In this document: one piece after another, positions 1,240 through 26,623 of the stretch
Position numbering within the stretch: the first letter of the stretch is position 1
Layout of the letters: each line of letters starts with the position of its first letter
Assembly (NCBI RefSeq): GCF_050920415.1
Contig: NZ_CP169309.1
Direction: 5' to 3' (one strand)
From: Escherichia coli
GTDB lineage: Bacteria; Pseudomonadota; Gammaproteobacteria; Enterobacterales; Enterobacteriaceae
DNA length: 64,000 nucleotides
Made by a program: the position numbers and the translations under genes
Notes under the pieces: model-generated
Database searches by the model: none
Seen by the model: the letters and a program-made list of their open reading frames with translations, nothing else
What the model was told of the DNA's origin: nothing

Positions 1240-1257
1240 TTCCTACAATTGTAAGAC
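1240..1257. promoter_or_regulatory. candidate EvgA box upstream of yfdX (TTCCTACA-at-TGTAAGAC); a second weaker copy at 1283-1300
   Basis: Match to remembered EvgA consensus TTCYTACA-N2-TGTARGAA, about 135 bp upstream of yfdX. Confidence 0.45.
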
Positions 1258-1392
1258 TAAAATACTTCTTGCGATAATAACTACAACTGTAAGATAACCC
1301 TTTCAAAATGACCGTTGCTCTCTGATTTCTCATTTCATGCTCACCCAATATGATGGCGGCGTTTTCTAAAACTGTTAAAGAATGAGGTAAGT

Positions 1393-3789: not shown

Positions 3790-3842
3790 TATTAACGGGG
3801 GCTTCTGGCTCCCAATTTATAAAAATTTCGAGGTTATTAATC

Positions 3843-5537: not shown

Positions 5538-5605
5538 ATACTGACATCGTCTCCTCTTGCCAACTCATTATCGATGGTGAGGGGACCCTTATCGGAAATA
5601 CTATT

Positions 5606-6550: not shown

Positions 6551-6623
6551 TTAATCATGTTATTAATTTTCATAAATGCCGAAGAGTCTTTTCACCTTCG
6601 GCTTTTTTTCAAGGCATAAGCAA

Positions 6624-7769
6624 ATGACAAATACTAAAAGCAAAGGCCCATTTGAAGGGTTATTAGTTATTGATATGACTCATGTCCTTAATGGGCCTTT
6701 CGGAACTCAACTCCTTTGTAATATGGGCGCAAGGGTCATTAAAGTTGAGCCGCCGGGTCATGGTGATGATACCCGCACATTTGGTCCCTATGTGGATGGG
6801 CAGTCACTCTATTACAGTTTTATTAATCATGGCAAAGAGAGCGTGGTTCTTGATTTAAAGAATGACCACGATAAAAGTATATTTATAAATATGCTTAAAC
6901 AAGCGGATGTATTAGCTGAGAATTTTCGCCCAGGTACAATGGAAAAACTGGGATTTTCGTGGGAAACGCTACAAGAAATCAACCCACGCCTCATATATGC
7001 TTCATCGTCAGGTTTCGGACATACCGGTCCGCTAAAAGATGCTCCGGCCTACGATACCATTATTCAGGCAATGAGTGGAATAATGATGGAAACGGGATAT
7101 CCTGATGCTCCGCCAGTGCGTGTTGGCACCTCTCTTGCAGATCTCTGTGGCGGTGTCTATTTATTCAGTGGAATCGTGAGTGCGCTTTATGGCCGCGAAA
7201 AGAGCCAGCGAGGGGCGCATGTCGATATCGCGATGTTTGATGCCACTCTGAGTTTTCTGGAGCATGGACTGATGGCATATATCGCGACAGGGAAGTCACC
7301 ACAACGCCTGGGAAATCGCCATCCCTACATGGCTCCTTTTGATGTTTTCGATACTCAGGATAAACCAATTACTATTTGTTGTGGTAATGACAAGCTTTTT
7401 TCTGCGTTATGCCAGGCACTGGATCTGACGGAACTTGTTGATGATCCCCGATTTAACAGCAATATTTTACGTGTACAAAATCAAGCTATTCTTAAACAAT
7501 ATATTGAGCGGACGTTAAAAACGCAGGCAGCTGAAGTTTGGTTAGCCAGAATAAATGAAGTTGGTGTGCCTGTAGCGCCGCTATTAAGTGTGGCTGAGGC
7601 CATTAATTTGCCACAAACTCAGGCGAGAAATATGTTGATTGAAGCTGGCGGAATAATGATGCCGGGTAATCCGATAAAAATCAGCGGCTGCGCGGACCCG
7701 CATGTTATGCCGGGAGCGGCAACGCTCGACCAGCATGGGGAACAAATTCGCCATGAGTTCTCATCATAA
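6624..7769 (+). CDS. yfdE: acetyl-CoA:oxalate CoA-transferase YfdE (start chosen at MTNTKSK; longer ORF begins 6576)
   Basis: Family III CoA-transferase paralogous to Frc; synteny. Confidence 0.8.
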   Translation: MTNTKSKGPFEGLLVIDMTHVLNGPFGTQLLCNMGARVIKVEPPGHGDDTRTFGPYVDGQSLYYSFINHGKESVVLDLKNDHDKSIFINMLKQADVLAENFRPGTMEKLGFSWETLQEINPRLIYASSSGFGHTGPLKDAPAYDTIIQAMSGIMMETGYPDAPPVRVGTSLADLCGGVYLFSGIVSALYGREKSQRGAHVDIAMFDATLSFLEHGLMAYIATGKSPQRLGNRHPYMAPFDVFDTQDKPITICCGNDKLFSALCQALDLTELVDDPRFNSNILRVQNQAILKQYIERTLKTQAAEVWLARINEVGVPVAPLLSVAEAINLPQTQARNMLIEAGGIMMPGNPIKISGCADPHVMPGAATLDQHGEQIRHEFSS

Positions 7770-7791
7770 ATGTAAGATGTGCTGGTAAATA

Positions 7792-7818
7792 GCTCCCACA
7801 TTTGAACCTTGTGGGAGC
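7792..7818. terminator. hairpin between convergent yfdE and evgS (9-bp stem GCTCCCACA/TGTGGGAGC)
   Basis: Inverted repeat read directly from sequence. Confidence 0.4.
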
Positions 7819-7824
7819 CGCTAT

Positions 7825-10800
7825 TTAGTCATTTTGTTGACAGAAAACCGCAATCTCCTGGTCTAACTCTGCAATGTGTTCTTTAACAGAGTTCAGCAAC
7901 TTAAGAATTTCAGGCTTGCTGTCATCTGAAACGGGCGTTATTTCTAACTGGTGGCTAAGATTAATCAACTTTTGCAAATTCAGGATGTTAGCCGCACCGT
8001 GGATGCGATGAATACACTGATGGAAAGTTCTGTTATCGCCAGCTTCTAACGCATGAAACGCAGCGGGTAGATCTTTATGCGTTTCATGCTGGAAAGTCAT
8101 GAGAATCTCCTGCATCAGTTGTAGATCGTTCGCCGTATTATTTTTCAGGGCCTCGATATCAAGGTGGCGATACTGAGGTGCAATATGTGCAACCTGGTGT
8201 AACTGACTTAAATGTGTTTTCAGTACATCCAGGGTTAACGGTTTGAACAAACATAAGTTCATGCCGCAATTTAACCCTTTTTCACGTTCGTTAGCCTGTG
8301 CGTTGGCTGTAAGCCCCCAGATGGGTAAGGAAGAATTTTGCTCACGGAGTTTGCGAGTCAACTCAAAACCATCCATATTCGGCATATTAACGTCAGTAAT
8401 AAGCAGATCATAATGTTGCATACTGACTTTGTGTAGCGCTTGCACACCATCAGTTGCTTCATCAACATCATATCCTAATAGGTTTAGCTGGCGTTTGAGT
8501 AATAGCCTGTTGGTCGGATGATCATCCGCGATTAATATGCTCAACTTTTCAGGGAGTGTCATAGGTTGTTCTGCTTTTGCCTCGACAGTCGCCACTTGTT
8601 GGGTAATTTCTACCGGGATTGTGATCGTAAATGTCGTTCCTATGCCTGGATGACTTTCTAATGACAAATCGCCCTGCATGTTTTTAATTAATTCTTTGCA
8701 GATCATTAAGCCTAAACCAGAACCTGTTTGCTGACGACCTGCTGTTGTTTGGCTATAGCGTTTAAACAGTTGTTGTTGTTCTTCCTGAGATAATCCGCTT
8801 CCGGTGTCCATAATGGTCATTTTGATAACAGCGTGGTTGTCATCAATATGAACCAGGGAAGTCGTAATTTTTACTGCCCCCTCGGTGGTAAATTTAAGGG
8901 CATTACTCAGTAAATTAGACAGCACCTGCTTAAATGCTTGAGGGTCGATTTTAACCAGGTAGCGTTCAGGAAGCGTACTGCTGCAATTTAATGCGATGGA
9001 TTTGCTTGCAGCAATCGCACCGAAAGAATGACAAGTGTTCTGGACTAAAGTAGGGATATCGACCCATTGTGGTTGAAGTTGATAGTTACCCGACTCAATT
9101 TTGTCGACATCAAGGATTTCACCAATTAAGCCGAGGAGCGACTGTCCGGTGGCGTAAGCAAGTGAAATCGCCTCCACACGTTGCTCCTTGCTAAGACCTG
9201 AACCCGACAGAAGTTCCAGGAAGCCCATAATGGAGCTTATTGGTGTTCTTATTTCGTGACTCATTGTTGCCAGGAACTGGCTTTTTGCGACAGTTGCATT
9301 GATCGCTTTATTTCTTTCTACTTCGAGTGCATGAATTAAATCACGCGTCTCGGTAATATCTTGCCAACCACAAATATATACTGCATTGTCACTTGCAGGT
9401 AAATTGCATAATGTATGCCAATGATTAATGCATCTTTTTTCAGTACCATTATTAATTTCAAAAACTTGGCTATATATTGTTCTGTTTTCTTTTGTTTCTG
9501 CTGTGACTTCATGCACATTAGAAAAAACATCTTTAAAGGGGGAGTCACTGTTTTCTAATGGTAACATTGCATTTTTGTAGTAATCAGCAGTGAAATAATG
9601 TTCAAATGCACTATTGTGACTAATGACATTACCTTGCCAGTTTACAACATAAGTTGGATTCGGTAAGGAATCCGAGAGTGCTTTCCGGAATGATATTTGG
9701 TTTTCTAAATCACCCTGAATTACCTTACGACGACGAACTGAGCGTAACAGGTAGAATCCCCATAAAAGGCTACTGCCAACTAATAAAACGGATAAAGTCG
9801 TAACAATGTAAAATTGCTCACTATAGAGGTCCCATGTGTCAATGGTCACATTGGGCATTTTGATCCATTTTTCCGTCAGGCGCAGAACTTCGCTTGGGGG
9901 AATTGCATTCAATGCTTTATTAATAATATCCTTAAGTTCTGGTTCTCCGCGAGGAAAAGCGAACGAAAGCGATGCATTCTCAACGCCGGGAATAAGAAAA
10001 TGATAAAGCTCATTAGGATAGTAATGGTCGATCATGTAACGCGAATTTAGCTGTGTCGCGACCAGGGCATCAAGTTCACCTTCCTTAACCTTGTGAAATG
10101 CAGCGCTAGCATTATCGACTTGTATCCACTCAACCTCCGGATACATCTCTTTCAATTGCGAATGAAGCTCATAATAATATGGAATGGCAACTTTCATTCC
10201 TTTTTTTAAAGTTTGTTCACTATCAGGCGCTTTTTGCATGACGAAAACGTAAGGCGTTGTTATGAATGCTTCAGCAAATAAAACATTATTTTCTCGATCT
10301 TCACTATAAATAGCGCCAGGTAAGATATCCCATCCATCGGGATTAAGCTGTGTTCCGGCATGGATATTGTGTGAAACGGTGATCGGAGAAAATCTTAAAC
10401 CTGTTTGCAATGTAATAATATTAAGAATATCCCCCATAACGCCCCGAACCGAGCCATTTTCATCAGTCATAGAATAGGGAGGGGAGTAAGGATTTTCCAG
10501 CACCTTTAAATCGGGATGTTGCTTAATCCACTGTTTTTCATGTTCAGTGAGTTCTAATGGTTTGTTCAGAAAGGCCAGGTTTCCTGTATCAAGCCAATTT
10601 TGTGATACTTCATAGCGAACTTCATTTGTTAAAGCATCAACAAACCGATTGAGTACTTCATTAAGAATGACGGATTCTTTTCTGGTCAAGAAAAAATTAT
10701 ATTGACGCGGCGAGTTATAATATTTCACTACATTTAAGGAGTGAGTGAAATAGCGGGAAATCATACTGCTGGTAATGATGTTACTACCAATAAAGTAATC

Positions 10801-11418
10801 ATTATGTCCGGTAGAAACGGATGCTAATGCCTGATATAAATTTGTAAAAGAGATAATTGTTGCTTTTGGAAATGATTGATGAATTACCTCGTCTGGGGGG
10901 TAATTTGCTACCCGAGCAATATTTACTGGTTTTGGTGAGGTAAGCGGTCGCATTGAGTCGTGAAGGGTGGTTACCAGCGCCGGAAAGGTAATTATCAATG
11001 GTTTGGTTGCAGCAATGTCATTATTAAGAGGCGGCGAAGTAACTAAATGTGATAACACTATATCGACTTCACCTTCTGCAAGCGCGTCCATTGCTTTTTG
11101 ATGATCTGCGTATTCCCGGAGTGTTAATTTGATATTTAACGCTCTTTTTAAAAGATTTAAATAATCAGCATTAATACCACGAACCCGTTGCTGCGAATCG
11201 GTATGCAACAACGTAGCCGTTTGGGACTTGTGTACTGCAATCACAAGATTTTTTTTGCTCGCTAACCAACGTAATTCCTTGTTGCTCAGACGTAGTGGAT
11301 CAAGCGTGACACGGTTGTTACTACTGATGCCACGATATTCGATGTAATCTTCGTCTGCGAAACTTATGGTCGACCAAAGACCACAACAGAGAAGAAAAAA
11401 ATAGGGTAAAAACTTCAT
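7825..11418 (-). CDS. evgS: hybrid sensor histidine kinase EvgS
   Basis: 1197 aa; periplasmic binding domains, HisKA/HATPase, receiver and HPt domains; recognised EvgS. Confidence 0.9.
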   Translation of the reverse strand: MKFLPYFFLLCCGLWSTISFADEDYIEYRGISSNNRVTLDPLRLSNKELRWLASKKNLVIAVHKSQTATLLHTDSQQRVRGINADYLNLLKRALNIKLTLREYADHQKAMDALAEGEVDIVLSHLVTSPPLNNDIAATKPLIITFPALVTTLHDSMRPLTSPKPVNIARVANYPPDEVIHQSFPKATIISFTNLYQALASVSTGHNDYFIGSNIITSSMISRYFTHSLNVVKYYNSPRQYNFFLTRKESVILNEVLNRFVDALTNEVRYEVSQNWLDTGNLAFLNKPLELTEHEKQWIKQHPDLKVLENPYSPPYSMTDENGSVRGVMGDILNIITLQTGLRFSPITVSHNIHAGTQLNPDGWDILPGAIYSEDRENNVLFAEAFITTPYVFVMQKAPDSEQTLKKGMKVAIPYYYELHSQLKEMYPEVEWIQVDNASAAFHKVKEGELDALVATQLNSRYMIDHYYPNELYHFLIPGVENASLSFAFPRGEPELKDIINKALNAIPPSEVLRLTEKWIKMPNVTIDTWDLYSEQFYIVTTLSVLLVGSSLLWGFYLLRSVRRRKVIQGDLENQISFRKALSDSLPNPTYVVNWQGNVISHNSAFEHYFTADYYKNAMLPLENSDSPFKDVFSNVHEVTAETKENRTIYSQVFEINNGTEKRCINHWHTLCNLPASDNAVYICGWQDITETRDLIHALEVERNKAINATVAKSQFLATMSHEIRTPISSIMGFLELLSGSGLSKEQRVEAISLAYATGQSLLGLIGEILDVDKIESGNYQLQPQWVDIPTLVQNTCHSFGAIAASKSIALNCSSTLPERYLVKIDPQAFKQVLSNLLSNALKFTTEGAVKITTSLVHIDDNHAVIKMTIMDTGSGLSQEEQQQLFKRYSQTTAGRQQTGSGLGLMICKELIKNMQGDLSLESHPGIGTTFTITIPVEITQQVATVEAKAEQPMTLPEKLSILIADDHPTNRLLLKRQLNLLGYDVDEATDGVQALHKVSMQHYDLLITDVNMPNMDGFELTRKLREQNSSLPIWGLTANAQANEREKGLNCGMNLCLFKPLTLDVLKTHLSQLHQVAHIAPQYRHLDIEALKNNTANDLQLMQEILMTFQHETHKDLPAAFHALEAGDNRTFHQCIHRIHGAANILNLQKLINLSHQLEITPVSDDSKPEILKLLNSVKEHIAELDQEIAVFCQQND

Positions 11419-11422
11419 GTGA

Positions 11423-12037
11423 TTAGCCGATTTTGTTACGTTGCGCGAATGTGTAAAGATCCATCAGTGATTTACATTCTAATTTTTCCATCAGGCGACT
11501 TTTATACGTGCTGACAGTTTTGTTGCTGATGAACATTTTTTCCGCAATGTCATTATTGTCCTTGCCATCAAGAATATACCTCATGACACTAATTTCTTGT
11601 TTCGATAAGGAGTCGAGTTTTTGCTGGTCGGACGTTAAACTTCCAACAAACCGGTTGAGAGAGAAAGGGAAATAGCAGTAGCCATTTTTTGCAGCTTCAA
11701 TAGCCGCAATGATATTGTTCATGCCTTCTTTTTTACTCACGAATCCATTAGCGCCAGCATCAGCACAATGTTTCCCGTAAAAATGGTCATTTTTAGCGGA
11801 GACGATAATAATAATTCCGCTATATTGGCGCTTCCTCAGCGTTTCTAACACCTGGATACCGTTAACTCCGGGGATATCGACATCAATGATGACGATATCA
11901 GGTTTAAGTGTTTCCACCCGCTGAACGGCACTTCCCCCTTCAGTCAACTCCGCTAAGATTTCAATATCGTTTTTGATCAATAAATTACGAATTGCTGCGA
12001 TAGCAAGAGGATGGTCATCAATAATTATTGCGTTCAT
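11423..12037 (-). CDS. evgA: response regulator EvgA (LuxR/NarL family)
   Basis: 204 aa, receiver plus LuxR HTH; recognised EvgA. Confidence 0.9.
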   Translation of the reverse strand: MNAIIIDDHPLAIAAIRNLLIKNDIEILAELTEGGSAVQRVETLKPDIVIIDVDIPGVNGIQVLETLRKRQYSGIIIIVSAKNDHFYGKHCADAGANGFVSKKEGMNNIIAAIEAAKNGYCYFPFSLNRFVGSLTSDQQKLDSLSKQEISVMRYILDGKDNNDIAEKMFISNKTVSTYKSRLMEKLECKSLMDLYTFAQRNKIG

Positions 12038-12261
12038 AGATTATTCCCTTTGCAATGAAGCATCTCCCTTCTCCCTGTAGTAATACAGACATAAGGCATC
12101 ATCTCATTTTCTCAATCAAAATAAGAAAATTTGAGCTTCCTTTAAGATAATTCAACAAGTATACCATATAAATAGTCGGCATAAATGAAATGTCAACAAT
12201 AAAATCAGGGATAATACCGCTAACTTATAGTTTCAAATGAGTACTATAAGGCTTCTTATTA

Positions 12262-12279
12262 ATCCTACAGGCGTAAGAA
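12262..12279. promoter_or_regulatory. candidate EvgA box in evgA-emrK divergent region (ATCCTACA-gg-CGTAAGAA)
   Basis: Near-consensus EvgA inverted repeat, one mismatch per half-site. Confidence 0.45.
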
Positions 12280-12452
12280 TTGTATTGCAAAAGTCACGGT
12301 TTAGTCCTCTGTTGTATCTTCTGCAACTCCTTTAAATTAGGCCTCCAACGTTCCTGGGATAATGTGTAACACATGCACTGTGTTTGATATGAAGAATGAA
12401 TACTCTTTTCATTCAATTCATAAATTTCATCTATGCGAAATGAGAGATAATA

Positions 12453-13616
12453 GTGGAACAGATTAATTCAAATAAAAAACATTCTGACAGAAGAAAATAT
12501 TTTGCTTTATTAGCAGTGGTTTTATTTATTGCGTTTTCAGGAGCCTATGCCTATTGGTCACTGGAATTAGAAGACATGATTAGTACAGATGACGCCTATG
12601 TTACGGGGAATGCTGATCCAATTTCTGCACAAGTCTCAGGCAGTGTCACTGTCGTTAATCATAAAGATACGAACTTTGTTCGACAGGGTGACATTTTAGT
12701 TTCACTGGATAAAACTGATGCTACGATTGCACTCAATAAAGCTAAAAATAATCTGGCAAATATTGTGCGACAAACGAATAAACTATACTTACAGGATAAA
12801 CAATACAGTGCCGAAGTCGCTTCAGCACGTATCCAGTATCAACAATCTTTAGAAGATTATAATCGTCGTGTGCCGCTAGCAAAGCAGGGGGTTATTTCAA
12901 AAGAAACGCTGGAGCACACCAAAGATACGTTAATAAGTAGCAAAGCGGCATTGAATGCAGCTATTCAGGCTTATAAAGCGAACAAAGCCTTAGTAATGAA
13001 CACACCATTAAATCGCCAGCCACAAGTTGTTGAAGCTGCGGATGCAACCAAAGAAGCCTGGTTAGCGCTTAAGCGTACGGATATTAAGAGTCCGGTTACT
13101 GGTTATATTGCCCAGCGAAGTGTGCAGGTTGGCGAAACAGTGAGTCCTGGACAATCGTTAATGGCTGTCGTACCGGCACGTCAAATGTGGGTTAATGCCA
13201 ACTTTAAAGAAACACAACTCACGGATGTACGGATTGGTCAATCGGTTAATATAATCAGCGATCTTTATGGTGAAAATGTTGTGTTTCATGGTCGGGTGAC
13301 AGGGATCAATATGGGAACCGGCAATGCGTTCTCCTTATTACCTGCACAAAATGCGACAGGGAACTGGATCAAAATCGTTCAGCGTGTACCGGTTGAGGTG
13401 TCTCTGGATCCAAAAGAACTCATGGAACATCCCTTGCGCATTGGTTTATCGATGACTGCAACCATTGATACCAGGAACGAAGACATTGCCGATATGCCTG
13501 ATCTGGCTTCATCCGTGACGTCAATGCCTGCTTACACCAGTAAGGCCTTAGTTATCGATACCAGTCCGATAGAAAAAGAGATTAACAACATTATTTCTCA
13601 TAATGGACAACTTTAA
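12453..13616 (+). CDS. emrK: multidrug efflux membrane-fusion protein EmrK
   Basis: 387 aa EmrA-family MFP; recognised EmrK. Confidence 0.85.
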   Translation: MEQINSNKKHSDRRKYFALLAVVLFIAFSGAYAYWSLELEDMISTDDAYVTGNADPISAQVSGSVTVVNHKDTNFVRQGDILVSLDKTDATIALNKAKNNLANIVRQTNKLYLQDKQYSAEVASARIQYQQSLEDYNRRVPLAKQGVISKETLEHTKDTLISSKAALNAAIQAYKANKALVMNTPLNRQPQVVEAADATKEAWLALKRTDIKSPVTGYIAQRSVQVGETVSPGQSLMAVVPARQMWVNANFKETQLTDVRIGQSVNIISDLYGENVVFHGRVTGINMGTGNAFSLLPAQNATGNWIKIVQRVPVEVSLDPKELMEHPLRIGLSMTATIDTRNEDIADMPDLASSVTSMPAYTSKALVIDTSPIEKEINNIISHNGQL

Positions 13617-15154
13617 TGGCAATCACTAAATCAACTCCGGCACCATTAACCGGTGGGACGTTATGGTGCGTCACTATTGCATTGTCATTAGCGACGTTTA
13701 TGCAAATGTTGGACTCCACTATTTCTAACGTCGCAATACCCACAATATCTGGCTTTCTCGGAGCATCAACGGACGAAGGCACATGGGTTATCACATCGTT
13801 TGGCGTAGCAAATGCCATTGCGATCCCTGTTACCGGCAGGCTGGCACAAAGAATAGGCGAATTAAGGTTATTTTTACTATCAGTAACCTTCTTTTCGCTG
13901 TCTTCATTAATGTGTAGTCTTTCGACTAATCTTGATGTTCTTATATTTTTTAGAGTCGTCCAGGGATTAATGGCGGGGCCGTTAATTCCATTGTCACAGA
14001 GTTTATTATTAAGGAATTATCCGCCAGAAAAAAGAACATTTGCTTTGGCGTTATGGTCAATGACCGTAATTATCGCTCCGATTTGTGGGCCGATATTGGG
14101 TGGCTATATTTGTGATAACTTTAGTTGGGGATGGATATTTTTAATCAATGTCCCTATGGGGATTATCGTCCTGACATTATGTTTAACTTTACTTAAAGGA
14201 AGAGAAACTGAAACTTCACCGGTCAAAATGAATTTACCAGGGTTGACCCTGTTAGTGCTCGGTGTTGGTGGCTTGCAAATTATGCTTGATAAAGGGCGCG
14301 ATCTGGATTGGTTTAACTCGAGTACAATCATAATATTAACAATAGTGTCAATTATTTCTCTGATCTCTTTAGTCATTTGGGAGTCGACCTCAGAGAACCC
14401 AATTCTTGACCTCAGTTTATTCAAGTCGCGTAATTTCACCATTGGTATTGTGTGTATCACATGCGCATATTTATTTTACTCTGGGGCGATTGTACTTATG
14501 CCGCAGTTGCTGCAGGAAACTATGGGGTATAATGCGATATGGGCCGGGCTTGCCTATGCGCCAATCGGCATAATGCCACTATTAATATCGCCTTTAATAG
14601 GACGTTATGGCAACAAAATTGATATGCGTGCATTGGTTACATTTAGTTTTTTGATGTATGCGGTTTGCTATTACTGGCGTTCTGTGACATTTATGCCAAC
14701 GATTGATTTCACAGGCATCATTTTGCCACAGTTTTTCCAGGGATTCGCCGTTGCCTGTTTCTTTTTACCCTTAACAACGATTTCGTTTTCAGGGTTGCCA
14801 GATAATAAATTTGCCAATGCCTCGAGTATGAGTAATTTTTTTCGTACCCTGTCAGGATCAGTTGGTACGTCGTTGACAATGACGTTGTGGGGACGACGCG
14901 AATCGTTACACCATAGTCAGTTGACAGCAACCATCGATCAATTTAACCCCGTGTTTAATTCATCATCACAAATTATGGATAAATACTATGGTTCGCTTTC
15001 AGGGGTTCTTAATGAAATTAATAATGAAATAACTCAGCAGTCACTTTCAATTTCTGCAAATGAGATTTTCCGTATGGCGGCTATTGCTTTTATCTTACTT
15101 ACGGTATTGGTTTGGTTTGCGAAACCGCCGTTTACAGCGAAAGGTGTTGGGTGA
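13616..15154 (+). CDS. emrY: MFS multidrug efflux pump EmrY
   Basis: 512 aa 14-TMS MFS; recognised EmrY. Confidence 0.85.
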   Translation: MAITKSTPAPLTGGTLWCVTIALSLATFMQMLDSTISNVAIPTISGFLGASTDEGTWVITSFGVANAIAIPVTGRLAQRIGELRLFLLSVTFFSLSSLMCSLSTNLDVLIFFRVVQGLMAGPLIPLSQSLLLRNYPPEKRTFALALWSMTVIIAPICGPILGGYICDNFSWGWIFLINVPMGIIVLTLCLTLLKGRETETSPVKMNLPGLTLLVLGVGGLQIMLDKGRDLDWFNSSTIIILTIVSIISLISLVIWESTSENPILDLSLFKSRNFTIGIVCITCAYLFYSGAIVLMPQLLQETMGYNAIWAGLAYAPIGIMPLLISPLIGRYGNKIDMRALVTFSFLMYAVCYYWRSVTFMPTIDFTGIILPQFFQGFAVACFFLPLTTISFSGLPDNKFANASSMSNFFRTLSGSVGTSLTMTLWGRRESLHHSQLTATIDQFNPVFNSSSQIMDKYYGSLSGVLNEINNEITQQSLSISANEIFRMAAIAFILLTVLVWFAKPPFTAKGVG

Positions 15155-15262
15155 TGGTAAAAAGAGAGAGCTATAGCAGGTAAGACGGTAGAATCTTAAG
15201 CCTGCGCCATCGGCAGCATCGTTCACCCAGGGAAAGGATGGTGATGCTGCGTTGAAACGTTA

Positions 15263-16591
15263 TTAACGGCCTTTAGCCAGATATTGCTTCATCTCTTCTT
15301 CCGGCACCATTCCACCTCCTGTCGCCCACACCAGATGAGTGGCATTACGCAGTTGTTCTGTGCTGAAACCTTGCATCTGTTGGTAACTTACTGATGCGCA
15401 CACGCGCTGAGGCCCAGCCATACCCGCCAGTGCTGAAGGTTCAAGACGAATGTCTTCTTCCTGCGCCAGCCAGCCAAGCATGTCATACATGGTTTGATCG
15501 CTAAGGGTATAGAAGCCATCCAGCAGACGCTCCATTGCTCGCCCGACAAAGCCTGATGCGCGACCAACAGCAAGGCCATCCGCTGCGGTAAGGTTGTCGA
15601 TACCAATATCCTGAACAGAAATCTGATTGTGTAGTCCGGTATGGACGCCTAACAGCATACAAGGAGAGTGCGTGGGTTCGGCAAAAAAGCAGTGAACATG
15701 ATCGCCAAATGCCAGTTTAAGACCGAATGCGACGCCACCAGGACCACCGCCAACGCCACACGGCAGATAGACAAACAGAGGGTTACCAGCATCGACGATA
15801 CGACCTTGCTGGGCAAATTGCGCTTTAAGACGCTGGCCTGCGACGGAATACCCAAGGAACAACGTGCGGGAATTCTCGTCATCAATAAAGAAACAGTTCG
15901 GGTCAGACTGCGCTGCTTTACGTCCTTCCTCGACGGCAACCCCATAATCTTGCTCATATTCCACGACCGTAACGCCATGGCTGCGCAGTTTCGCTTTTTT
16001 CCATGCCCGGGCATCAGCAGACATATGTACTGTCACCTTAAAGCCAATGCGGGCGCTCATAATACCGATTGATAACCCCAGATTTCCGGTTGAGCCCACA
16101 GCAATGCTGTATTGGCTAAAGAACTGCTTAAACTCCGGAGAAAGCAGTTTGCTGTAGTCATCTTCAAGCGTCAGCAACCCTGCTTCCAGAGCCAGTTTTT
16201 CTGCATGTGCCAGGGCTTCATAAATCCCGCCGCGTGCTTTTATGGAGCCGGAAATAGGCAAATGGCTATCTTTTTTCAGTAACAGTTGCCCGCTGATCGG
16301 TTGCTGATATTCCTTTTCCAGCCGTTTTTGCATAGCCGGAATGGCAACCAGTTCTGATTCAATAATCCCTCCAGAGGCAGCCGTTTCAGGAAATGCTTTT
16401 GCCAGATAGGGGGCAAAACGAGATAAGCGCGCATGGGCGTCTTGAACATCCTGTTCGGTCAGGCCAACATAAGGTAAACCTTCAGCCAATGAGGTCGTGC
16501 CAGGATTGAACCAGGTGGTTTCTTTAAGAGCAACCAGATCCTTTACCAACGGATACTGGGCGATGAGCGAGTTCATTTTAGCGTTTTCCAT
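15263..16591 (-). CDS. dsdA: D-serine dehydratase (PLP-dependent)
   Basis: 442 aa; recognised DsdA. Confidence 0.9.
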
Positions 16592-16606
16592 AGTACGTCT
16601 CTTTGC

Positions 16607-16795
16607 GCTTAGATGATAAATGACAGCAGGAATGTGCCCGCCAGAGCGACGACTGAAGCGATAAATGTCGCTGTCGTATAGTATTTATATGTTTCACTGA
16701 GCGTAGCGCCGCAAAATTGTTTCATCAGCCAGAAAAACGAGTCCGTAACGATCGTGCAGCCAATCGCAATAATTTCCGGGCTGATGTCTGGTTAC
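16607..16795 (-). pseudogene. dsdX: 3'-terminal remnant of D-serine permease dsdX (last ~57 codons; 5' part deleted)
   Basis: Reverse strand reads [56 protein letters not shown]-stop, a GntP-family C-terminus; reading frame hits a stop just upstream, so no intact gene. Confidence 0.7.
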
Positions 16796-17047
16796 AGCCA
16801 CAGCACAATGATCCATATTTATATTTTTTCTCCGGGTGGGTGATGCCAGTCGGCATGTTTTACCTACTTGTCTGCATGGTGACTCGTTGGCGAGAACAGA
16901 GGCGGAATTGGTTACAATTGTCCGGGAATTCTTGTTATTTTTTACTGTATTGTCGTGTCGGGTGATAGGACGTTAAGAATATCGCTGGATCTCGCCAGTG
17001 ACGTCTGTTTCTGCTACAGTGCCCGTTTTACGGCAAACGGCTTGGGT

Positions 17048-18043
17048 ATGGCTTCATTAAAGGATGTCGCACGCCTGGCGGGAGTGTCGATGATGACTGT
17101 CTCCCGGGTGATGCATAATGCAGAATCTGTGCGTCCTGCAACGCGTGACCGCGTATTGCAGGCAATCCAAACCCTGAATTATGTTCCTGATCTTTCCGCT
17201 CGTAAGATGCGCGCTCAGGGACGTAAGCCGTCGACTCTCGCCGTGCTGGCGCAGGATACTGCTACCACTCCTTTCTCTGTTGATATTCTGCTTGCCATTG
17301 AACAAACCGCCAGCGAGTTTGGCTGGAATAGTTTTTTAATCAATATTTTTTCTGAAGATGACGCTGCCCGCGCGGCACGTCAGCTGCTTGCCCTCCGTCC
17401 GGATGGCATTATCTATACTACAATGGGACTGAGGCATATCACGCTGCCTGAGTCTCTGCATGGTGAAAATATTGTATTGGCGAACTGTGTGGCGGATGAC
17501 CCAGCGTTACCCAGTTATATCCCTGATGATTACACTGCCCAATATGAAGCAACACAGCATTTGCTCGCGGCGGGCTATCGTCAACCGTTATGCTTCTGGC
17601 TACCGGAAGGTGCGTTGGCAACAGGGTATCGTCGGCAGGGATTTGAGCAGGCCTGGCGTGATGCTGGACGAGATCTGGCTGAGGTGAAACAATTTCACAT
17701 GGCCATAGGTGATGATCACTACACCGATCTCGCAAGTATACTCAATGCCCACTTCCAGTCTGGAAAACCAGATTTTGATGTTCTGATTTGTGGTAACGAT
17801 CGCGCAGCCTTTGTGGCTTATCAGGTTCTTCTGGCGAAGGGGGTACGTATCCCGCAGGATGTCGCCGTAATGGGCTTTGATAATCTGGTTGGCGTCGGGC
17901 ATCTGTTTTTACCGCCGCTGACCACAATTCAGCTTCCACATGACATTATCGGGCGGGAAGCTGCATTGCATATTATTGAAGGTCGTGAAGGGGGAAGGGT
18001 AACGCAGATCCCTTGCCCGCTGTTGCTCCGTTGTTCCACCTGA
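17048..18043 (+). CDS. cscR: LacI-family sucrose operon repressor CscR (start chosen at MASLKDVA)
   Basis: N-terminal LacI HTH plus periplasmic-binding-like domain. Confidence 0.8.
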   Translation: MASLKDVARLAGVSMMTVSRVMHNAESVRPATRDRVLQAIQTLNYVPDLSARKMRAQGRKPSTLAVLAQDTATTPFSVDILLAIEQTASEFGWNSFLINIFSEDDAARAARQLLALRPDGIIYTTMGLRHITLPESLHGENIVLANCVADDPALPSYIPDDYTAQYEATQHLLAAGYRQPLCFWLPEGALATGYRRQGFEQAWRDAGRDLAEVKQFHMAIGDDHYTDLASILNAHFQSGKPDFDVLICGNDRAAFVAYQVLLAKGVRIPQDVAVMGFDNLVGVGHLFLPPLTTIQLPHDIIGREAALHIIEGREGGRVTQIPCPLLLRCST

Positions 18044-18050
18044 TATTATG

Positions 18051-19493
18051 TTACCCCAGTTGCCAGAGTGCTCCATGTTGCAGCACGGCCACTCCGTGGG
18101 CGGCATAGAGCGACAGTTCCCGTTCTTCTGGCTGCGGATAGATTCGGCTACTCATCACAGCTTCCCCGTCGTTAATAAATACTTCCACGGATGATGTATC
18201 GATAAATATCCTTAGGGCGAGCGTGTCACGCTGCGGGAGGGGAATACTACGGTAACCATCTAAATTCTCGTGTGGGTAATACCGCCACAAAACAAGTCGC
18301 TCAGATTGGTTATCAATATACAGCCGCATTCCCGTGCCGAGCTGTAATCCGTAATGTTCGGCATCGCTGTTCTTCAGAGCCCAGTGCAACTGAATCTCAA
18401 CCGCTTGCGCGTTTTCCTGCAAAACATATTTGTTGCTGATTGTGTGGGGAGAGATTGATTGATGCTGCTGGCGTAACGACTCAGCTTCGTGTACCGGGCG
18501 TTGTAGGAGTTTGCCATTGCTCTCTGAAAGCTCGCGCGCCAGCGTCATGCAGCCTGCCCAGCCTTCACGTTTTGAGGGCATTGGCGATTCCCACATATCC
18601 ATCCAGCCGATAACAATACGCCGACCATCCTTCGCTAAAAAGCTTTGTGGTGCATAAAAGTCATGCCCATTATCAAGTTCAGTAAAATGCCCGGATTGTG
18701 CAAAAAGTCGTCCTGGCGACCATATTCCGGGTATTACACCACTTTGAAAGCGATTTCGATAATTGTATCCCTCGGCATTCATTCCCTGCGGGGAAAACAT
18801 CAGATAATGTTGATCGCCAAGGCTGAAAAAGTCCGGACATTCCCACATATAGCTTTCACCCGCATCAGCGTGGGCCAGTACGCGATCGAAAGTCCATTCA
18901 CGCAATGAACTGCCGCGATAAAGCAGGATCTGTCCCGTGTTGCCTGGGTCTTTCGCCCCGACTACCATCCACCAGGTGTCGGCTTCACGCCACACTTTAG
19001 GATCGCGGAAGTGCATGATTCCTTCTGGTGGAGTGAGGATCACACCTTGTTTCTCGAAATGAATACCATCCCGGCTGGTAGCCAGACATTGTACTTCACG
19101 AATTGCATCGTCATTACCTGCACCATCGAGCCAGACGTGGCCGGTGTAGATAAGTGAGAGGACACCATTGTCATCAACAGCACTACCTGAAAAACACCCG
19201 TCTTTGTCATTCTCGTCTCCTGGCGCTAGCGCAATAGGCTCGTGCTGCCAGTGGATCATATCGTCGCTGGTGGCATGTCCCCAGTGCATTGGCCCCCAGT
19301 GTTCGCTCATCGGGTGATGCTGATAAAACGCGTGATAACGATTGTTAAACCAGATCAGGCCGTTTGGATCGTTCATCCACCCGGCTGGAGGCGCGAGGTG
19401 AAAATGGGGATAAAAAGTATTCCCCCGGCGCTCGTGAAGTTTTGCTAGTGCGTTTTGCGCCGCATGCAATCGAGATTGCGTCATTTTAATCAT
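18051..19493 (-). CDS. cscA: sucrose-6-phosphate hydrolase / invertase CscA (GH32)
   Basis: GH32 motifs WMNDPNG, FRDP, WECPD. Confidence 0.85.
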   Translation of the reverse strand: MIKMTQSRLHAAQNALAKLHERRGNTFYPHFHLAPPAGWMNDPNGLIWFNNRYHAFYQHHPMSEHWGPMHWGHATSDDMIHWQHEPIALAPGDENDKDGCFSGSAVDDNGVLSLIYTGHVWLDGAGNDDAIREVQCLATSRDGIHFEKQGVILTPPEGIMHFRDPKVWREADTWWMVVGAKDPGNTGQILLYRGSSLREWTFDRVLAHADAGESYMWECPDFFSLGDQHYLMFSPQGMNAEGYNYRNRFQSGVIPGIWSPGRLFAQSGHFTELDNGHDFYAPQSFLAKDGRRIVIGWMDMWESPMPSKREGWAGCMTLARELSESNGKLLQRPVHEAESLRQQHQSISPHTISNKYVLQENAQAVEIQLHWALKNSDAEHYGLQLGTGMRLYIDNQSERLVLWRYYPHENLDGYRSIPLPQRDTLALRIFIDTSSVEVFINDGEAVMSSRIYPQPEERELSLYAAHGVAVLQHGALWQLG

Positions 19494-19518
19494 CCTGGTT
19501 AAGCAAATTTGGTGAATT

Positions 19519-19530
19519 GTTAACGTTAAC
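19519..19530. promoter_or_regulatory. perfect 12-bp palindrome GTTAACGTTAAC, candidate CscR operator 1
   Basis: Palindrome in cscA-cscK divergent intergenic region. Confidence 0.5.
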
Positions 19531-19563
19531 TTTTATAAAAATAAAGCCCCTTATCTTTATAAA

Positions 19564-19579
19564 TGTGATTAATATCACA
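19564..19579. promoter_or_regulatory. candidate CRP site TGTGA-N6-TCACA
   Basis: Perfect match to CRP consensus half-sites. Confidence 0.5.
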
Positions 19580-19582
19580 AAT

Positions 19583-19594
19583 GTTAACGTTAAC
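19583..19594. promoter_or_regulatory. second copy of GTTAACGTTAAC palindrome, candidate CscR operator 2
   Basis: Identical palindrome 64 bp from the first. Confidence 0.5.
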
Positions 19595-19699
19595 TATGAC
19601 GTTTTGTGATCGAATGTGCATGTTTTAGTAAATCCATGACGATTTTGCGAAAAAGAGGTTTATCACTATGCGTAAGTCAGATGAATTTGAGGGAAAAAA

Positions 19700-20614
19700 A
19701 TGTCAGCCAAAGTATGGGTTTTAGGGGATGCGGTTGTCGATCTCTTGCCTGAATCAGACGGGCGCCTACTGCCTTGTCCTGGCGGCGCGCCAGCTAACGT
19801 TGCGGTGGGAATCGCCAGATTAGGCGGAATAAGTGGGTTTATAGGCCGGGTGGGTGATGATCCTTTTGGCGCGTTAATGCAAAGAACGCTGCTAACGGAG
19901 GGAGTCGATATCACGTATCTGAAGCAGGATGAATGGCACCGAACATCCACGGTGCTTGTCGATCTGAACGATCAGGGGGAACGTTCATTTACGTTTATGG
20001 TCCGCCCTGGTGCCGATCTTTTTTTAGAGACGACTGACTTGCCCTTCTGGCGACATGGCGAATGGTTACATCTCTGTTCTATTGCGTTGTCTGCTGAACC
20101 TTCGCGTACCAGCGCATTTACTGCGATGACGGCGATCCGGCATGCCGGAGGTTTTGTCAGCTTCGATCCCAATATTCGTGAAGATCTGTGGCAAGACGAG
20201 CATTTGCTCCGCTTGTGTTTGCGACAGGCGCTACAACTGGCGGATGTCGTCAAGCTCTCGGAAGAAGAATGGCGACTTATCAGCGGAAAAACACAGAACG
20301 ATCGGGATATATGTGCTCTGGCAAAAGAGTATGAGATCGCCATGCTGTTGGTGACTAAAGGTGCAGAAGGGGTGGTGGTCTGTTATCGAGGACAAGTTCA
20401 CCATTTTGCTGGAATGTCTGTGAATTGTGTCGATAGCACGGGGGCGGGAGATGCGTTCGTTGCCGGGTTACTCACAGGTCTTTCCTCTACGGGATTAGAG
20501 ACCGATGAGAGAGAAATGCGACGAATTATCGATCTCGCTCAACGTTGTGGAGCGCTTGCAGTAACGGCGAAAGGGGCAATGACAGCGCTGCCATGTCGAC
20601 AAGATCTGGAATAG
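19700..20614 (+). CDS. cscK: fructokinase CscK (PfkB family)
   Basis: PfkB motifs GGAPANVA and DSTGAGDAF. Confidence 0.85.
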   Translation: MSAKVWVLGDAVVDLLPESDGRLLPCPGGAPANVAVGIARLGGISGFIGRVGDDPFGALMQRTLLTEGVDITYLKQDEWHRTSTVLVDLNDQGERSFTFMVRPGADLFLETTDLPFWRHGEWLHLCSIALSAEPSRTSAFTAMTAIRHAGGFVSFDPNIREDLWQDEHLLRLCLRQALQLADVVKLSEEEWRLISGKTQNDRDICALAKEYEIAMLLVTKGAEGVVVCYRGQVHHFAGMSVNCVDSTGAGDAFVAGLLTGLSSTGLETDEREMRRIIDLAQRCGALAVTAKGAMTALPCRQDLE

Positions 20615-20685
20615 TGAGAAATAAACGGCGAGGCCGTTCTTGTCTCTGAATAGGACGTGAATATTTTAACGACAGGCAGGTAATT

Positions 20686-21933
20686 ATGGCACTGAATATA
20701 CCATTCAGAAATGTGTACTATCGTTTTGCATCCAGTTACTCATTTCTCTTTTTTATTTCCTGGTCGCTGTGGTGGTCGTTATACGCTATTTGGCTGAAAG
20801 GACATCTAGGGTTGACTGGGACGGAATTAGGTACACTTTATTCGGTCAACCAGTTTACCAGTATTCTATTTATGATGGTCTACGGCATCGTCCAGGATAA
20901 ACTCGGTCTGAAGAAACCGCTTATCTGGTGTATGAGTTTCATCCTGGTCTTGACCGGACCGTTTATGATTTACGTTTATGAACCGTTACTGCAAAGCAAT
21001 TTTTCTGTAGGTCTAATTTTGGGGGCGCTCTTTTTTGGCTTGGGGTATCTGGCGGGCTGCGGTCTGCTTGATAGCTTCACCGAAAAAATGGCACGAAATT
21101 TTCATTTCGAATATGGAACAGCGCGCGCCTGGGGATCTTTTGGCTATGCGATTGGCGCGTTCTTTGCTGGCATATTTTTCAGTATCAGTCCCCATATCAA
21201 CTTCTGGTTGGTTTCGCTATTTGGCGCTGTATTTATGATGATCAACATGCGTTTTAAATATCAGGATCAGCAGTGCGTAGCGGCAGATGCGGGAGGGGTA
21301 AAAAAAGAGGATTTTATTGCAGTTTTCAAGGACCGAAACTTCTGGATTTTCGTCATATTTATTGTGGGGACGTGGTCTTTCTATAACATTTTTGATCAAC
21401 AGCTCTTTCCTGTTTTTTATGCAGGTTTATTCGAATCACACGATGTAGGAACGCGCCTGTATGGTTATCTCAACTCATTCCAGGTTGTACTCGAAGCGCT
21501 GTGCATGGCCATTATTCCTTTCTTTGTTAATCGGGTAGGGCCAAAAAATGCATTACTTATCGGTGTTGTGATTATGGCGTTGCGTATTCTTTCCTGCGCA
21601 CTGTTCGTTAATCCCTGGATTATTTCATTAGTGAAGCTTTTACATGCCATTGAGGTTCCACTGTGTGTCATTTCCGTCTTCAAATACAGCGTGGCAAACT
21701 TTGATAAACGCCTGTCGTCGACGATCTTTCTGATTGGTTTTCAAATTGCCAGTTCGTTGGGGATTGTGTTGCTTTCAACGCCGACTGGAATACTTTTTGA
21801 CCATGCAGGTTACCAGACGGTTTTCTTCGTAATTTCGGGTATTGTCTGCCTGATGTTGTTATTTGGCATTTTCTTCCTGAGTAAAAAACGTGAGCAAATG
21901 GTGATGGAAACGCCTGTACCTTCTGCAATATAG
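20686..21933 (+). CDS. cscB: sucrose:H+ symporter CscB (MFS, LacY-like)
   Basis: 415 aa 12-TMS MFS permease. Confidence 0.85.
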   Translation: MALNIPFRNVYYRFASSYSFLFFISWSLWWSLYAIWLKGHLGLTGTELGTLYSVNQFTSILFMMVYGIVQDKLGLKKPLIWCMSFILVLTGPFMIYVYEPLLQSNFSVGLILGALFFGLGYLAGCGLLDSFTEKMARNFHFEYGTARAWGSFGYAIGAFFAGIFFSISPHINFWLVSLFGAVFMMINMRFKYQDQQCVAADAGGVKKEDFIAVFKDRNFWIFVIFIVGTWSFYNIFDQQLFPVFYAGLFESHDVGTRLYGYLNSFQVVLEALCMAIIPFFVNRVGPKNALLIGVVIMALRILSCALFVNPWIISLVKLLHAIEVPLCVISVFKYSVANFDKRLSSTIFLIGFQIASSLGIVLLSTPTGILFDHAGYQTVFFVISGIVCLMLLFGIFFLSKKREQMVMETPVPSAI

Positions 21934-22363
21934 ACGTAAACTCTTTCCGGTTGTTGTCGATAGCTCTATATCCCTCAACCGGAAAATAATAATACCAAAA
22001 TGCTTAGCGCGGCTAATAATCGCCTAATCCAAACGCCTCATTCATGTTCTGGAACAGCCGCTCAAATGTACTCAGGATACGCGGTTCGCTGATTTCCAGG
22101 AAATTGTCGTAATTCAGCGACCTGTCCCGTGTATCACGGGCCTGCTAATCCATCAAGGAATGCATTGCGGAGTGAAGTATCGAGTCAAGCCAGATTTCGC
22201 GATCAGGATTCTGTGTGATGATTACATTGCCAGGCCCGGGGCTGTTTAGTCATCGCCGCACAGTGCTGAGATTTCAACCTGTTGCAGGGAAAATGAGTAG
22301 ATTTAGGGCAAGTGTGCTGCCAAACCCAACTTTTACGCGGGGAAGGTAGATTTCGTTGGAAGG

Positions 22364-22383
22364 ATAAATGGTGTCCCCTGCAG
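22364..22383. repeat. prophage att core, torI-proximal copy (ATAAATGGTGTCCCCTGCAG)
   Basis: Exact 20-bp direct repeat of 62521-62540, which covers the 3' end of argW. Confidence 0.8.
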
Positions 22384-22456: not shown

Positions 22457-22657
22457 TTACCCATTGGCGCGGCTTAAGAGCTTATTTTTGAATTCACAAT
22501 GGTCACGATATAACCATCTTGCTCGCCCGTGGATAACTTTGGCTTTTGGCAGGTCGCCGGACTTAATCCGGTCATAGATGAAGGTTTTACCAAAGCCAGT
22601 ATCGGCCATGATGAATTTCAAATCAACCAGTGAATCAGGCTGTAGTTCGTGTTGCAT
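22457..22657 (-). CDS. torI: TorI-like excisionase / recombination directionality factor (AlpA-Xis family)
   Basis: 66 aa; recognised as KplE1 TorI; sits at prophage end opposite the integrase. Confidence 0.8.
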   Translation of the reverse strand: MQHELQPDSLVDLKFIMADTGFGKTFIYDRIKSGDLPKAKVIHGRARWLYRDHCEFKNKLLSRANG

Positions 22658-25245: not shown

Positions 25246-25734
25246 TTATTTGATAAGAAGTGAAGGTTTCCCAACTTTGAGTTGAGCGCCGGGGATATTT
25301 ATTCCTGCTTTTAGTTGGTGTTTGATTGCCAGTTTGTCGGCTTTAATTGTTGTTTCAAACTCAACGTATTCTGGAGGAAGGGCGCTTGAGTCGATGATTT
25401 CTACAGTTTCTGACGGTTTGCGGATTGTTACCTGGTGAATACCTGCTCGAATCTTTTTCTTTCCAACCATTTCAAGCGATGACGCTATATACGTCATAAT
25501 GCTATCAATCTTATTTTGAATTACTGCTGCTCTTTCATTCAGTGACTTTGCCTCTTCCTTGAGGCGTTCAGCATAACCAGACTCATTTTTAATAATGGCA
25601 AGAAGTTGCTCTATTTTATCGGTAAATTCTCCTTCCATGCCTTCTATTGTGTCAGCAATCATCTCTGGTTCTAAATCTGAATCCATCAATTTTGCGTATT
25701 CATTGGCAATTTCATACAGTTTGCTCACTGGCAA
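25246..25734 (-). CDS. Gp157-like protein (often found with RecT/Erf recombinases)
   Basis: 162 aa; position immediately downstream of recT-like gene; family call from memory. Confidence 0.4.
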   Translation of the reverse strand: MPVSKLYEIANEYAKLMDSDLEPEMIADTIEGMEGEFTDKIEQLLAIIKNESGYAERLKEEAKSLNERAAVIQNKIDSIMTYIASSLEMVGKKKIRAGIHQVTIRKPSETVEIIDSSALPPEYVEFETTIKADKLAIKHQLKAGINIPGAQLKVGKPSLLIK

Positions 25735-26623
25735 CCTCCAGTTTCGCTTTGCATTCTATGTAAATGGCTTGTACGTTCTGCTGCAATTTCATTCCAGATG
25801 TCAGGCGATATGCTTCTGCAAAATATCGCTTCAAATCATCCATGTTTTCTGCCTGAGCCATTTCATCGCAAAGAAGTTGTGCTTTATCCATTATTTCCTG
25901 CTGGCGTTTCCGTTCATCTTCGCGGATATCTTCCTCTGATTTGTGCGGCATAACTGGTTCAGTCCATACACCTTCTTCTTCGTTTAGTACGTGAATAGCA
26001 CTATCAAGACGTGATGCCTTAGGCCAATACTTGCTTGCACGCTTCACGACCGTCTTTCGCGCCATCTCATTCCAGTGATTTACCCATGGTCCTTTATCGC
26101 TGAATGCCGCCTTGCTTGTTTTCCTTACAGCCTCAATTTCAGCAATACTCATCTCTTCCGTTAGATAATCACCTGCCGGCGTCTTAACTGTGCAGTAAAC
26201 GCCAACGATATCACCACGATCACCGAAGGCGTTGTATTTATGGGTTGGTGCTTTATCAAGCCCGTTTGACTCATAGGTATCGTTAGCATGAACAAGTTTT
26301 GCCTGACCCCATGAGATAACACCAGACTCCATTGCAATATGGAGCAATCCCATATAGCTGATATCAAGGCAAACCATGCCGTCGCGCGGAACCAGATAAG
26401 CCAGTTTGCTGGCCGGGTTTAAGGTGATGCCGATCGCCGCAACATTGATGATGGCGTTCTGTGCGCTGGTTGGATTTGCCAGTGCTGTTTTAGCCAGGTA
26501 ATCATTTTTCTGGAAATACTGAATTGCAAACTGGCTTTCCTTAGCCCATGTCACCGTCTGTTCAGTCAATGCTCCGCAGAATAACTGCTCCTGCTGTTTA
26601 ACGAATTCAACGATATTGCTCAT
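25712..26623 (-). CDS. RecT-family single-strand annealing recombinase
   Basis: 303 aa; motif GPWVNHWNEMARKTVVKRASKYWP resembles RecT GPWVTHWEEMAKKTAIRRLFKYLP. Confidence 0.7.
   Translation of the reverse strand: MSNIVEFVKQQEQLFCGALTEQTVTWAKESQFAIQYFQKNDYLAKTALANPTSAQNAIINVAAIGITLNPASKLAYLVPRDGMVCLDISYMGLLHIAMESGVISWGQAKLVHANDTYESNGLDKAPTHKYNAFGDRGDIVGVYCTVKTPAGDYLTEEMSIAEIEAVRKTSKAAFSDKGPWVNHWNEMARKTVVKRASKYWPKASRLDSAIHVLNEEEGVWTEPVMPHKSEEDIREDERKRQQEIMDKAQLLCDEMAQAENMDDLKRYFAEAYRLTSGMKLQQNVQAIYIECKAKLEVASEQTV

Follow-up and report, generated by a model that had tools for sequence, protein, structure and literature searches.

In the csc regulon of Escherichia coli, sucrose enters the cell with a proton through CscB and is hydrolysed by CscA once in the cytoplasm, after which CscK phosphorylates the fructose. 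The regulon of strain EC3132 is said to go back to work by Bockmann in 1992 and Jahreis in 2002, and the exchange of dsdC-dsdX for csc was, as the citing papers relate, reportedly described by Alaeddinoglu and Charles in 1979, Jahreis in 2002, and Moritz and Welch in 2006. Further descriptions of this exchange are those of Archer 2011 (PMC3032704), Connolly 2015, O'Boyle 2020 and Stephens 2024, and two accounts (PMC4366372, PMC3032704) place the csc replacement at the argW hotspot and report the loss of D-serine use. In the published descriptions of EC3132 and W, cscR, cscA, cscK and cscB are accompanied by divergent promoters, two 12-bp palindromic operators and a CRP site, and the genes are inserted between the argW region and dsdX (PMC3032704). 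The alternative allele is that of K-12, argW-CPS-53-dsdCXA, with the same flanking genes (yfdC, argW; dsdA, emrYK, evgAS).

We analysed a 64,000-nucleotide stretch of E. coli DNA (the window), in which the following features were located.

15263-16591, minus strand: dsdA, D-serine ammonia-lyase, 442 aa, intact (TIGR02035, 807 bits, full profile)
16609-16805, minus strand: dsdX 3' stub (pseudogene), homologous to K-12 DsdX residues 374-445 (tblastn, alignments)
16805-16806: left breakpoint, where dsdX homology stops and csc-side sequence starts in all csc+ loci compared
16806-17047, plus strand: cscR upstream region of the csc block, collinear across csc+ loci, missing from K-12
17048-18043, plus strand: cscR, LacI-family sucrose repressor, 331 aa (LacI-family matches)
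18051-19484, minus strand: cscA, GH32 invertase / sucrose hydrolase, 477 aa (TIGR01322, 479 bits)
19485-19699: divergent cscA / cscKB control region with two palindromes and a CRP-like site
19700-20614, plus strand: cscK, fructokinase, 304 aa (NF006957, 501 bits, above the curated cutoff)
20686-21933, plus strand: cscB, sucrose:H+ symporter of the oligosaccharide MFS family, 415 aa (TIGR00882, 590 bits)
21934-22362, minus strand: conserved 434-bp cscB-argW spacer with a decayed 3' DUF4942 gene fragment (~22030-22231)
22363-22383: att repeat, an exact 21-bp direct repeat of 62520-62540 (15 nt of the argW 3' end plus 6 nt), prophage boundary
22384-62540: P22-like prophage at argW, 40,157 bp, outside the swap itself
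22457-22657, minus strand: TorI-like excisionase, with torI homology to K-12 CPS-53
61207-62400, minus strand: prophage integrase (Pfam)
62526-62600, minus strand: argW, tRNA-Arg(CCU), integration hotspot (ARAGORN)

In agreement with the preliminary description, open reading frames and family matches give the order dsdA, dsdX stub, cscR/cscA/cscK/cscB, prophage, with a full-length dsdA and no tblastn match to dsdC within the 64-kb window, which leaves dsdA without its activator and its cognate permease. A truncated dsdX abutting cscR, a missing dsdC and a retained dsdA are the features of the Moritz and Welch 2006 type of csc allele, and the locus description in four papers that cite this work and Jahreis 2002 (PMC4366372, PMC7486766, PMC3032704, PMC11251922) matches the window. 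When the prophage is removed, cscB is followed by 434 bp and argW, as in comparison locus L001. Hence, we assign the window locus with high confidence to the standard csc allele of the E. coli argW-dsd locus. The proposed replacement of dsdC-dsdX by csc at an argW-associated hotspot is thus real but ordinary: it has been documented before, and about half of the complete E. coli genomes have it.

The closest described relatives are the O157:H7 strains Sakai and EDL933 (ECs_3241-3245 / z3623-z3626), which share the gene order, the dsdX breakpoint and the cscB-argW spacer with the window, and which also carry a P22-like element, Sp16, at the argW att site. Sakai differs from the window by ~3-4% at the nucleotide level throughout; its prophage is an 8.5-kb remnant, whereas that of the window is a full 40-kb element, and its dsdX stub (219 nt) has 72 open codons, whereas that of the window is interrupted by a nonsense codon and has lost 21 bp. 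Like the window, K-12 has a prophage at the argW att site that belongs to the same integration family and bears torI at its distal end, but it keeps dsdC and a full dsdX and lacks both the csc genes and the DUF4942-relic spacer.

The dsdX remnant had been given as ~57 codons at 16607-16795, which is close. Its stop codon lies at 16609-16611, the 60 sense codons between it and an in-frame TAA at 16792-16794 are open, and homology extends to 16805/16806; with the 21-bp deletion, which is in frame, ~65 homologous codons are left. In the identical locus L001, PGAP annotates a DsdX pseudogene at 16609-16791. The nonsense codon, the deletion and mostly nonsynonymous changes suggest that the stub decays neutrally in the window lineage. 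A multiple alignment of the window, L003, L004, L005, L006 and K-12 placed the left breakpoint, and the comparison with other csc+ loci that had been suggested gave the same dsdX breakpoint in all of them, the junction being identical in six csc+ loci of two haplotypes ~4% apart and in Sakai. The right end of the sucrose island had been set at 22363. This position is the first base of the argW att repeat, but 21934-22362 is the relic spacer and not csc.

All four csc genes are uninterrupted open reading frames, and together with NCBIfam matches they give the order of the csc regulon, R-A(reverse)-K-B; a 99.4%-identical locus bears the names cscR/cscA/cscK/cscB in RefSeq. CscR, annotated in L003 as 'sucrose operon repressor CscR', is 96.7% identical to the Sakai protein at the amino acid level, and a 362-aa frame starting at 16955 is an upstream GTG extension of it. 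CscA (98.3% identity to Sakai) contains the motifs WMNDPNG (residue 36), RDP (160) and ECP (215), the pfkB motif DSTGAGD is present in CscK, and CscB is 97.8% identical to Sakai CscB. In the divergent control region, the 12-bp palindrome GTTAACGTTAAC occurs at 19519-19530 and again at 19583-19594, 64 bp apart, and a CRP-like site, TGTGATTAATATCACA, lies between the two copies at 19564-19579. PMC11251922, crediting Jahreis 2002, describes a pair of 12-bp inverted repeats as operators together with a CRP site, and the sites of the window match this account. By analogy, CscR would repress the divergent cscA and cscKB promoters through the two GTTAACGTTAAC operators, while the CRP site would confer catabolite control.

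The csc genes give slow growth on sucrose (PMC11251922), at a rate that depends on the strain. Without DsdC and the dsdX promoter, dsdA would be expressed at a low basal level, as in published strains of the same layout: in the O157:H7 background, dsdA was shown to be silent and to be reactivatable by read-through from cscAp after cscR deletions (PMC7486766). The same study places dsdAp in the region upstream of dsdA, which is included in the dsdX stub, and reports that D-serine still enters such strains via CycA/SstT. As other carriers still import it, D-serine would be not only unusable as a carbon source but also growth-inhibitory in strains with the csc allele, and the outcome would be D-serine sensitivity beyond mere non-use. 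Between 16400 and 22500, promoter-like sites found by a consensus scan were fewer than in shuffled sequences, and terminator-like hairpins were weak only. For the window strain, slow, CscR-repressed growth on sucrose, no growth on D-serine and D-serine sensitivity are expected from the sequence. The proposed trade of D-serine use for sucrose use agrees with the published locus, the two phenotypes being predicted from gene content. Such a locus is a classic niche-linked metabolic trade-off in E. coli, between sucrose-using, D-serine-sensitive intestinal and diarrhoeagenic lineages and D-serine-using extraintestinal lineages; D-serine is, moreover, a repressor of type III secretion in EHEC (PMC4366372). 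For the window, its significance lies mainly in a correct annotation.

The trade would not be a real one if the csc genes were cryptic and the strain used neither sucrose nor D-serine. Among 29 csc+ scr- isolates, five failed to grow on sucrose, one with a cscB frameshift and four with apparently intact genes, while most others grew slowly (PMC11251922); since non-growers may show no obvious defect, intact reading frames do not guarantee sucrose use. The Csc proteins of the window lineage each differ from those of Sakai by 7-11 residues, with a cluster at CscB 189-195. However, all four frames are full length with intact catalytic motifs, the regulatory sites (operators and CRP) are conserved, and dN/dS values of 0.05-0.10 for cscA/K/B between haplotypes point to continued selection. 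We therefore regard cryptic csc genes as unlikely, and the non-functional csc genes that would have spoken against the trade appear, from the reading frames, not to be present. Alternatively, the trade would be undone by a second, intact dsdCXA elsewhere, as in many K1/B2 strains, with D-serine use kept beside sucrose use. Second copies exist in E. coli (at most two places per genome, 199 extra places), and a few strains with both loci are known (PMC11251922). Among 5,426 complete E. coli genomes, 2,663 contained cscKB and 2,771 contained dsdC-dsdX5', with 5,354 in the union, 80 having both and 72 neither. For these counts cscKB alone served as the query; the whole csc block had drawn 138 weak GH32 cross-hits. 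A dsdC/dsdX5' match was thus found in only 3.0% of the csc+ genomes and none in 97%, no plasmid of the survey genomes carried dsdC, and csc and dsdCX are nearly mutually exclusive in E. coli. In the 23 complete genomes closest to the window, all of its own lineage and one of them 100% identical across the locus, no dsdC/dsdX5' was found elsewhere on the chromosome, a chimeric query of backbone and dsdC matching a single place in each. Judging from these relatives, the window strain probably has no second dsdCX copy, and retained D-serine use is extremely improbable.

The preferred reading of the locus, an exchange of dsdC-dsdX for intact csc genes, would go back to a single ancestral event, in which a block of cscR, cscA, cscK, cscB and the relic spacer was joined to dsdX at codon ~373, with the same event removing the dsdC-dsdX control region along with all of dsdC and five-sixths of dsdX from its start. 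Both the direction and the single origin are inferred from the shared junctions, and the haplotypes have evidently recombined, as L004 dsdA shows. The segment from dsdA to cscB is collinear in 2,646 genomes; 2,623 genomes match the spacer over >=80% of its length, and the spacer is collinear with Sakai, L004 and L006. It is 73-78% identical at the nucleotide level to full-length DUF4942 genes elsewhere, and its fragment is read as a relic of an older CP4-type island; this reading needed a DNA-level search because the Pfam match of the spacer peptide to DUF4942 was sub-threshold (E=0.016). Several independent origins of the allele at the hotspot might be suspected from the highly variable occupancy of the argW region in the loci examined, but are very improbable given a base-identical dsdX breakpoint and a collinear relic spacer in haplotypes ~4% diverged, as well as the spread of that spacer.

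The host of the window belongs to a rare, deeply divergent lineage. The csc/ΔdsdX junctions are common to mainstream E. coli and to this lineage, which lies ~4% away, and the divergence of csc keeps pace with that of the backbone. As the deep lineage keeps both junctions, the swap is probably old. We tentatively propose, as a possibility with somewhat less than an even chance, that csc/ΔdsdX is an old, long-maintained polymorphism and not a recent island gain, and that the 'orphan' dsdA is kept by selection. DsdA is 97.7% identical to the K-12 protein at the amino acid level and has the PLP lysine K118. Its dN/dS of ~0.07 (range 0.04-0.13 against other alleles) is confounded by recombination as a test of selection after orphaning, because dsdA of the csc+ locus L004 is 99.8% identical to K-12, evidence of haplotype recombination. 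Instead, the stub and dsdA were contrasted within the lineage, with only 11 substitutions in the stub. On these comparisons, the 'orphan' dsdA is under purifying selection and not a dead gene. Since the stub appears to decay neutrally while dsdA has a dN/dS of ~0.07, DsdA may still be useful in csc+ cells without DsdC and DsdX; it might detoxify D-serine at a basal level, or its expression might be tied to csc transcription. The same junctions in a deeply divergent lineage, and measurable selection on a supposedly silent dsdA, add a modest new evolutionary angle.

The element at the argW att site is a P22-like (Lederbergvirus-type) prophage with P22-type genes, a tyrosine integrase adjacent to the tRNA gene and flanking att repeats. 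Pfam matches comprise a P22 portal, terminase, injectosome, tailspike head-binding domain and integrase, and phage IME10 is 96% identical over 57% of the prophage query. A search with the csc-prophage junction and 24 kb of the prophage gave a best coverage of 69% among complete genomes. Removal of 22384-62540 results in 100.000% identity over 11,844 bp to the prophage-free strain MFDS1022581. The prophage entered the argW att site later and independently of the swap, leaving the csc/dsd junctions undisturbed. Among the loci examined, the argW region was occupied by no element, a full P22-like phage, degraded Sp16, a CP4-like island or CPS-53.

The preliminary description held that the sucrose genes (csc) had replaced the D-serine regulator and permease genes dsdC-dsdX at an argW hotspot, orphaning the ammonia-lyase gene dsdA. 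This observation is confirmed, and its reading as a csc-for-dsdCX trade at argW is supported, the phenotypes being those that we infer. The window runs in reverse of the K-12 E. coli chromosome; positions 1-16805 are collinear with K-12 at 95.7% identity.

Genes of the backbone (open reading frames, NCBIfam matches and K-12 collinearity) and of the csc region (uninterrupted open reading frames)
Left end, in order: yfdX, frc, oxc, yfdV, yfdE, evgS
11423-12037, minus: evgA
12453-13616, plus: emrK
13616-15154, plus: emrY
15263-16591, minus: dsdA
17048-18043, plus: cscR
18051-19484, minus: cscA
19700-20614, plus: cscK
20686-21933, plus: cscB

As claimed, dsdA is intact: it encodes 442 aa, matches TIGR02035 over the full length (807 bits) and retains K118, the PLP lysine. 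Upstream of it only a stub of dsdX survives, with its stop codon at 16609-16611 and homology limited to K-12 DsdX residues 374-445, reaching as far as 16805, and a tblastn search with K-12 DsdC gave no match within the 64-kb window; the reported 3' remnant and loss of dsdC are thus borne out. The stub carries an in-frame TAA (16792-16794) and a 21-bp in-frame deletion, and PGAP calls a DsdX pseudogene over the same 183 nt in an identical genome.

All four csc genes lie uninterrupted between dsdA and the prophage. CscA keeps the GH32 motifs WMNDPNG, RDP and ECP, and CscK the pfkB motif DSTGAGD. The cscA-cscK intergenic region holds the palindrome GTTAACGTTAAC twice (19519-19530 and 19583-19594), with a near-perfect sequence match to a CRP site between the copies (19564-19579); this agrees with the description of the csc operators and CRP site in PMC11251922, which credits Jahreis 2002. 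Four of the nine differences between CscB and its counterpart in O157:H7 Sakai fall within residues 189-195 (C189R, D192Y, K193Q, H195Q), which presumably belong to the central cytoplasmic loop.

The dsdX/csc breakpoint, 16805|16806, was compared with other csc-positive strains, as the preliminary description had proposed. It is base-identical in all five loci compared, namely a close relative (L003, NZ_CM148325.1), common-haplotype O45:H2, the B2 probiotic A0 34/86 and 05_3471 (n = 3), and Sakai, and the cscB-argW spacer is likewise collinear in these. Sakai shares the architecture, including a P22-like element at argW, and the window's proteins are 96.7-98.3% identical to its own; its element, Sp16, is degraded, whereas the window's prophage is complete.

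The host backbone belongs to a rare, deep lineage. For positions 1-10000, just 23 complete genomes are at least 98.3% identical, the other ~5,400 reaching at most 96.6%; this divergence, unusual for E. coli, covers 1-16805 and 61121-64000, and emrK/emrY dS is about 0.25 versus K-12. The sequence would fit a lineage resembling cryptic clade I that has been filed under E. coli. Since the identity of csc to the common allele, 96.2%, reflects a divergence similar to that of the backbone, we infer that the junctions either predate the split of this lineage or result from an ancient exchange.

Among 5,426 complete E. coli genomes, the dsdA-to-cscB block is collinear in 2,646, cscKB is present in 2,663 and K-12 dsdC plus 5' dsdX in 2,771. 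A concatenated query of both matched 5,354, so that 80 genomes (3.0% of csc-positive ones) carry both and 72 neither; no plasmid-borne dsdC was found in this collection. An intact dsdC-dsdX elsewhere in the genome, the refuting case named in the preliminary description, was sought in relatives as a proxy for the source strain: a chimeric query of lineage-specific backbone (positions 1-3500) and K-12 dsdC-dsdX5' matched a single place in 23/23 genomes of the window's lineage, including the 100%-identical MFDS1022581, and therefore dsdC/dsdX5' is absent from all of these chromosomes.

The 72-codon stub of the common csc allele (Sakai, O45:H2) still encodes the same amino acids as K-12 DsdX; the nonsense codon and 21-bp deletion are additional in the window's lineage. 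Within the lineage, the stub shows 8 nonsynonymous (including the nonsense codon) and 3 synonymous changes and the one 21-bp deletion, against 9 nonsynonymous and 35 synonymous changes in dsdA with the same comparator (Fisher p = 0.002). Because of this contrast, the "orphan" dsdA appears to remain under purifying selection, with small numbers and evident recombination at the locus. The 79 nt directly preceding dsdA are perfectly conserved and lie inside the ~115-nt upstream stretch to which PMC7486766 assigns dsdAp.

The swap itself is an already published and very common feature. Published accounts cite Jahreis 2002, Moritz & Welch 2006 and Alaeddinoglu & Charles 1979, and PMC3032704 describes the same replacement, with loss of D-serine use, in E. 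coli W. PMC11251922 gives csc in 35-37% of isolates (all of those in phylogroups D and E, nearly all in B1, none in A and F), with slow csc-conferred growth and a few strains having both loci. According to PMC7486766, dsdA is silent in the csc layout, D-serine enters by CycA/SstT and is inhibitory, and deletions removing cscR reactivate dsdA through cscAp read-through. What is added here is small: a deep-lineage host with shared junctions, and stub decay versus selection on dsdA.

Features from cscB to argW
21934-22362: spacer from cscB to att repeat, 434 bp
22363-22383 and 62520-62540: att repeat GATAAATGGTGTCCCCTGCAG, 21 bp
22457-22657, minus: TorI-like excisionase
25712-26623, minus: RecT
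42738-44903: P22-type portal
51332-52738: injectosome protein
59106-60623: tailspike with P22 head-binding domain
61207-62400, minus: integrase
62526-62600, minus: argW

Part of the spacer (~22030-22231) shows 73-78% identity to full-length copies of the DUF4942 gene that ends CP4-type islands elsewhere in E. coli. The spacer is probably a decayed DUF4942 fragment left by an older island at argW, which hints that the space between csc and argW was once occupied by an integrative island. The whole spacer is found at no less than 80% coverage in 2,623 complete genomes, and it is kept beside csc in about 2,600.

The island's proposed end, 22363, coincides exactly with base 1 of the att repeat, whose second copy overlaps the argW 3' end. 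After removal of 22384-62540 the window is 100.000% identical over 11,844 bp to prophage-free MFDS1022581, where the spacer and then argW come straight after cscB. The 40,157-bp block thus represents a prophage that integrated cleanly into the argW att site. This complete P22-like prophage, flanked by the repeats, also encodes a P22-type terminase; its integrase adjoins argW and the excisionase lies at the opposite end. Its best phage match is IME10 (96% identity over 57% of the query), and none of the complete E. coli genomes searched covers more than 69% of it. Within the prophage, an IS3-family transposase ORF with rve/HTH_21 domains (57763-58668) lies after a KilA-N gene (56779-57351) and before that for the tailspike; it may reflect insertion of an IS into the late/tail region.

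Differing cargo at the same att site in csc-positive strains illustrates the hotspot: L006 (NZ_CP074946.1, 8427-10886) has a CP4-type island with YeeU antitoxin, DUF987, JAB/RadC, antirestriction and DUF932 genes, and L003 (10250-13293) a prophage remnant that includes torI along with genes for a PACE efflux transporter and a LysR regulator.
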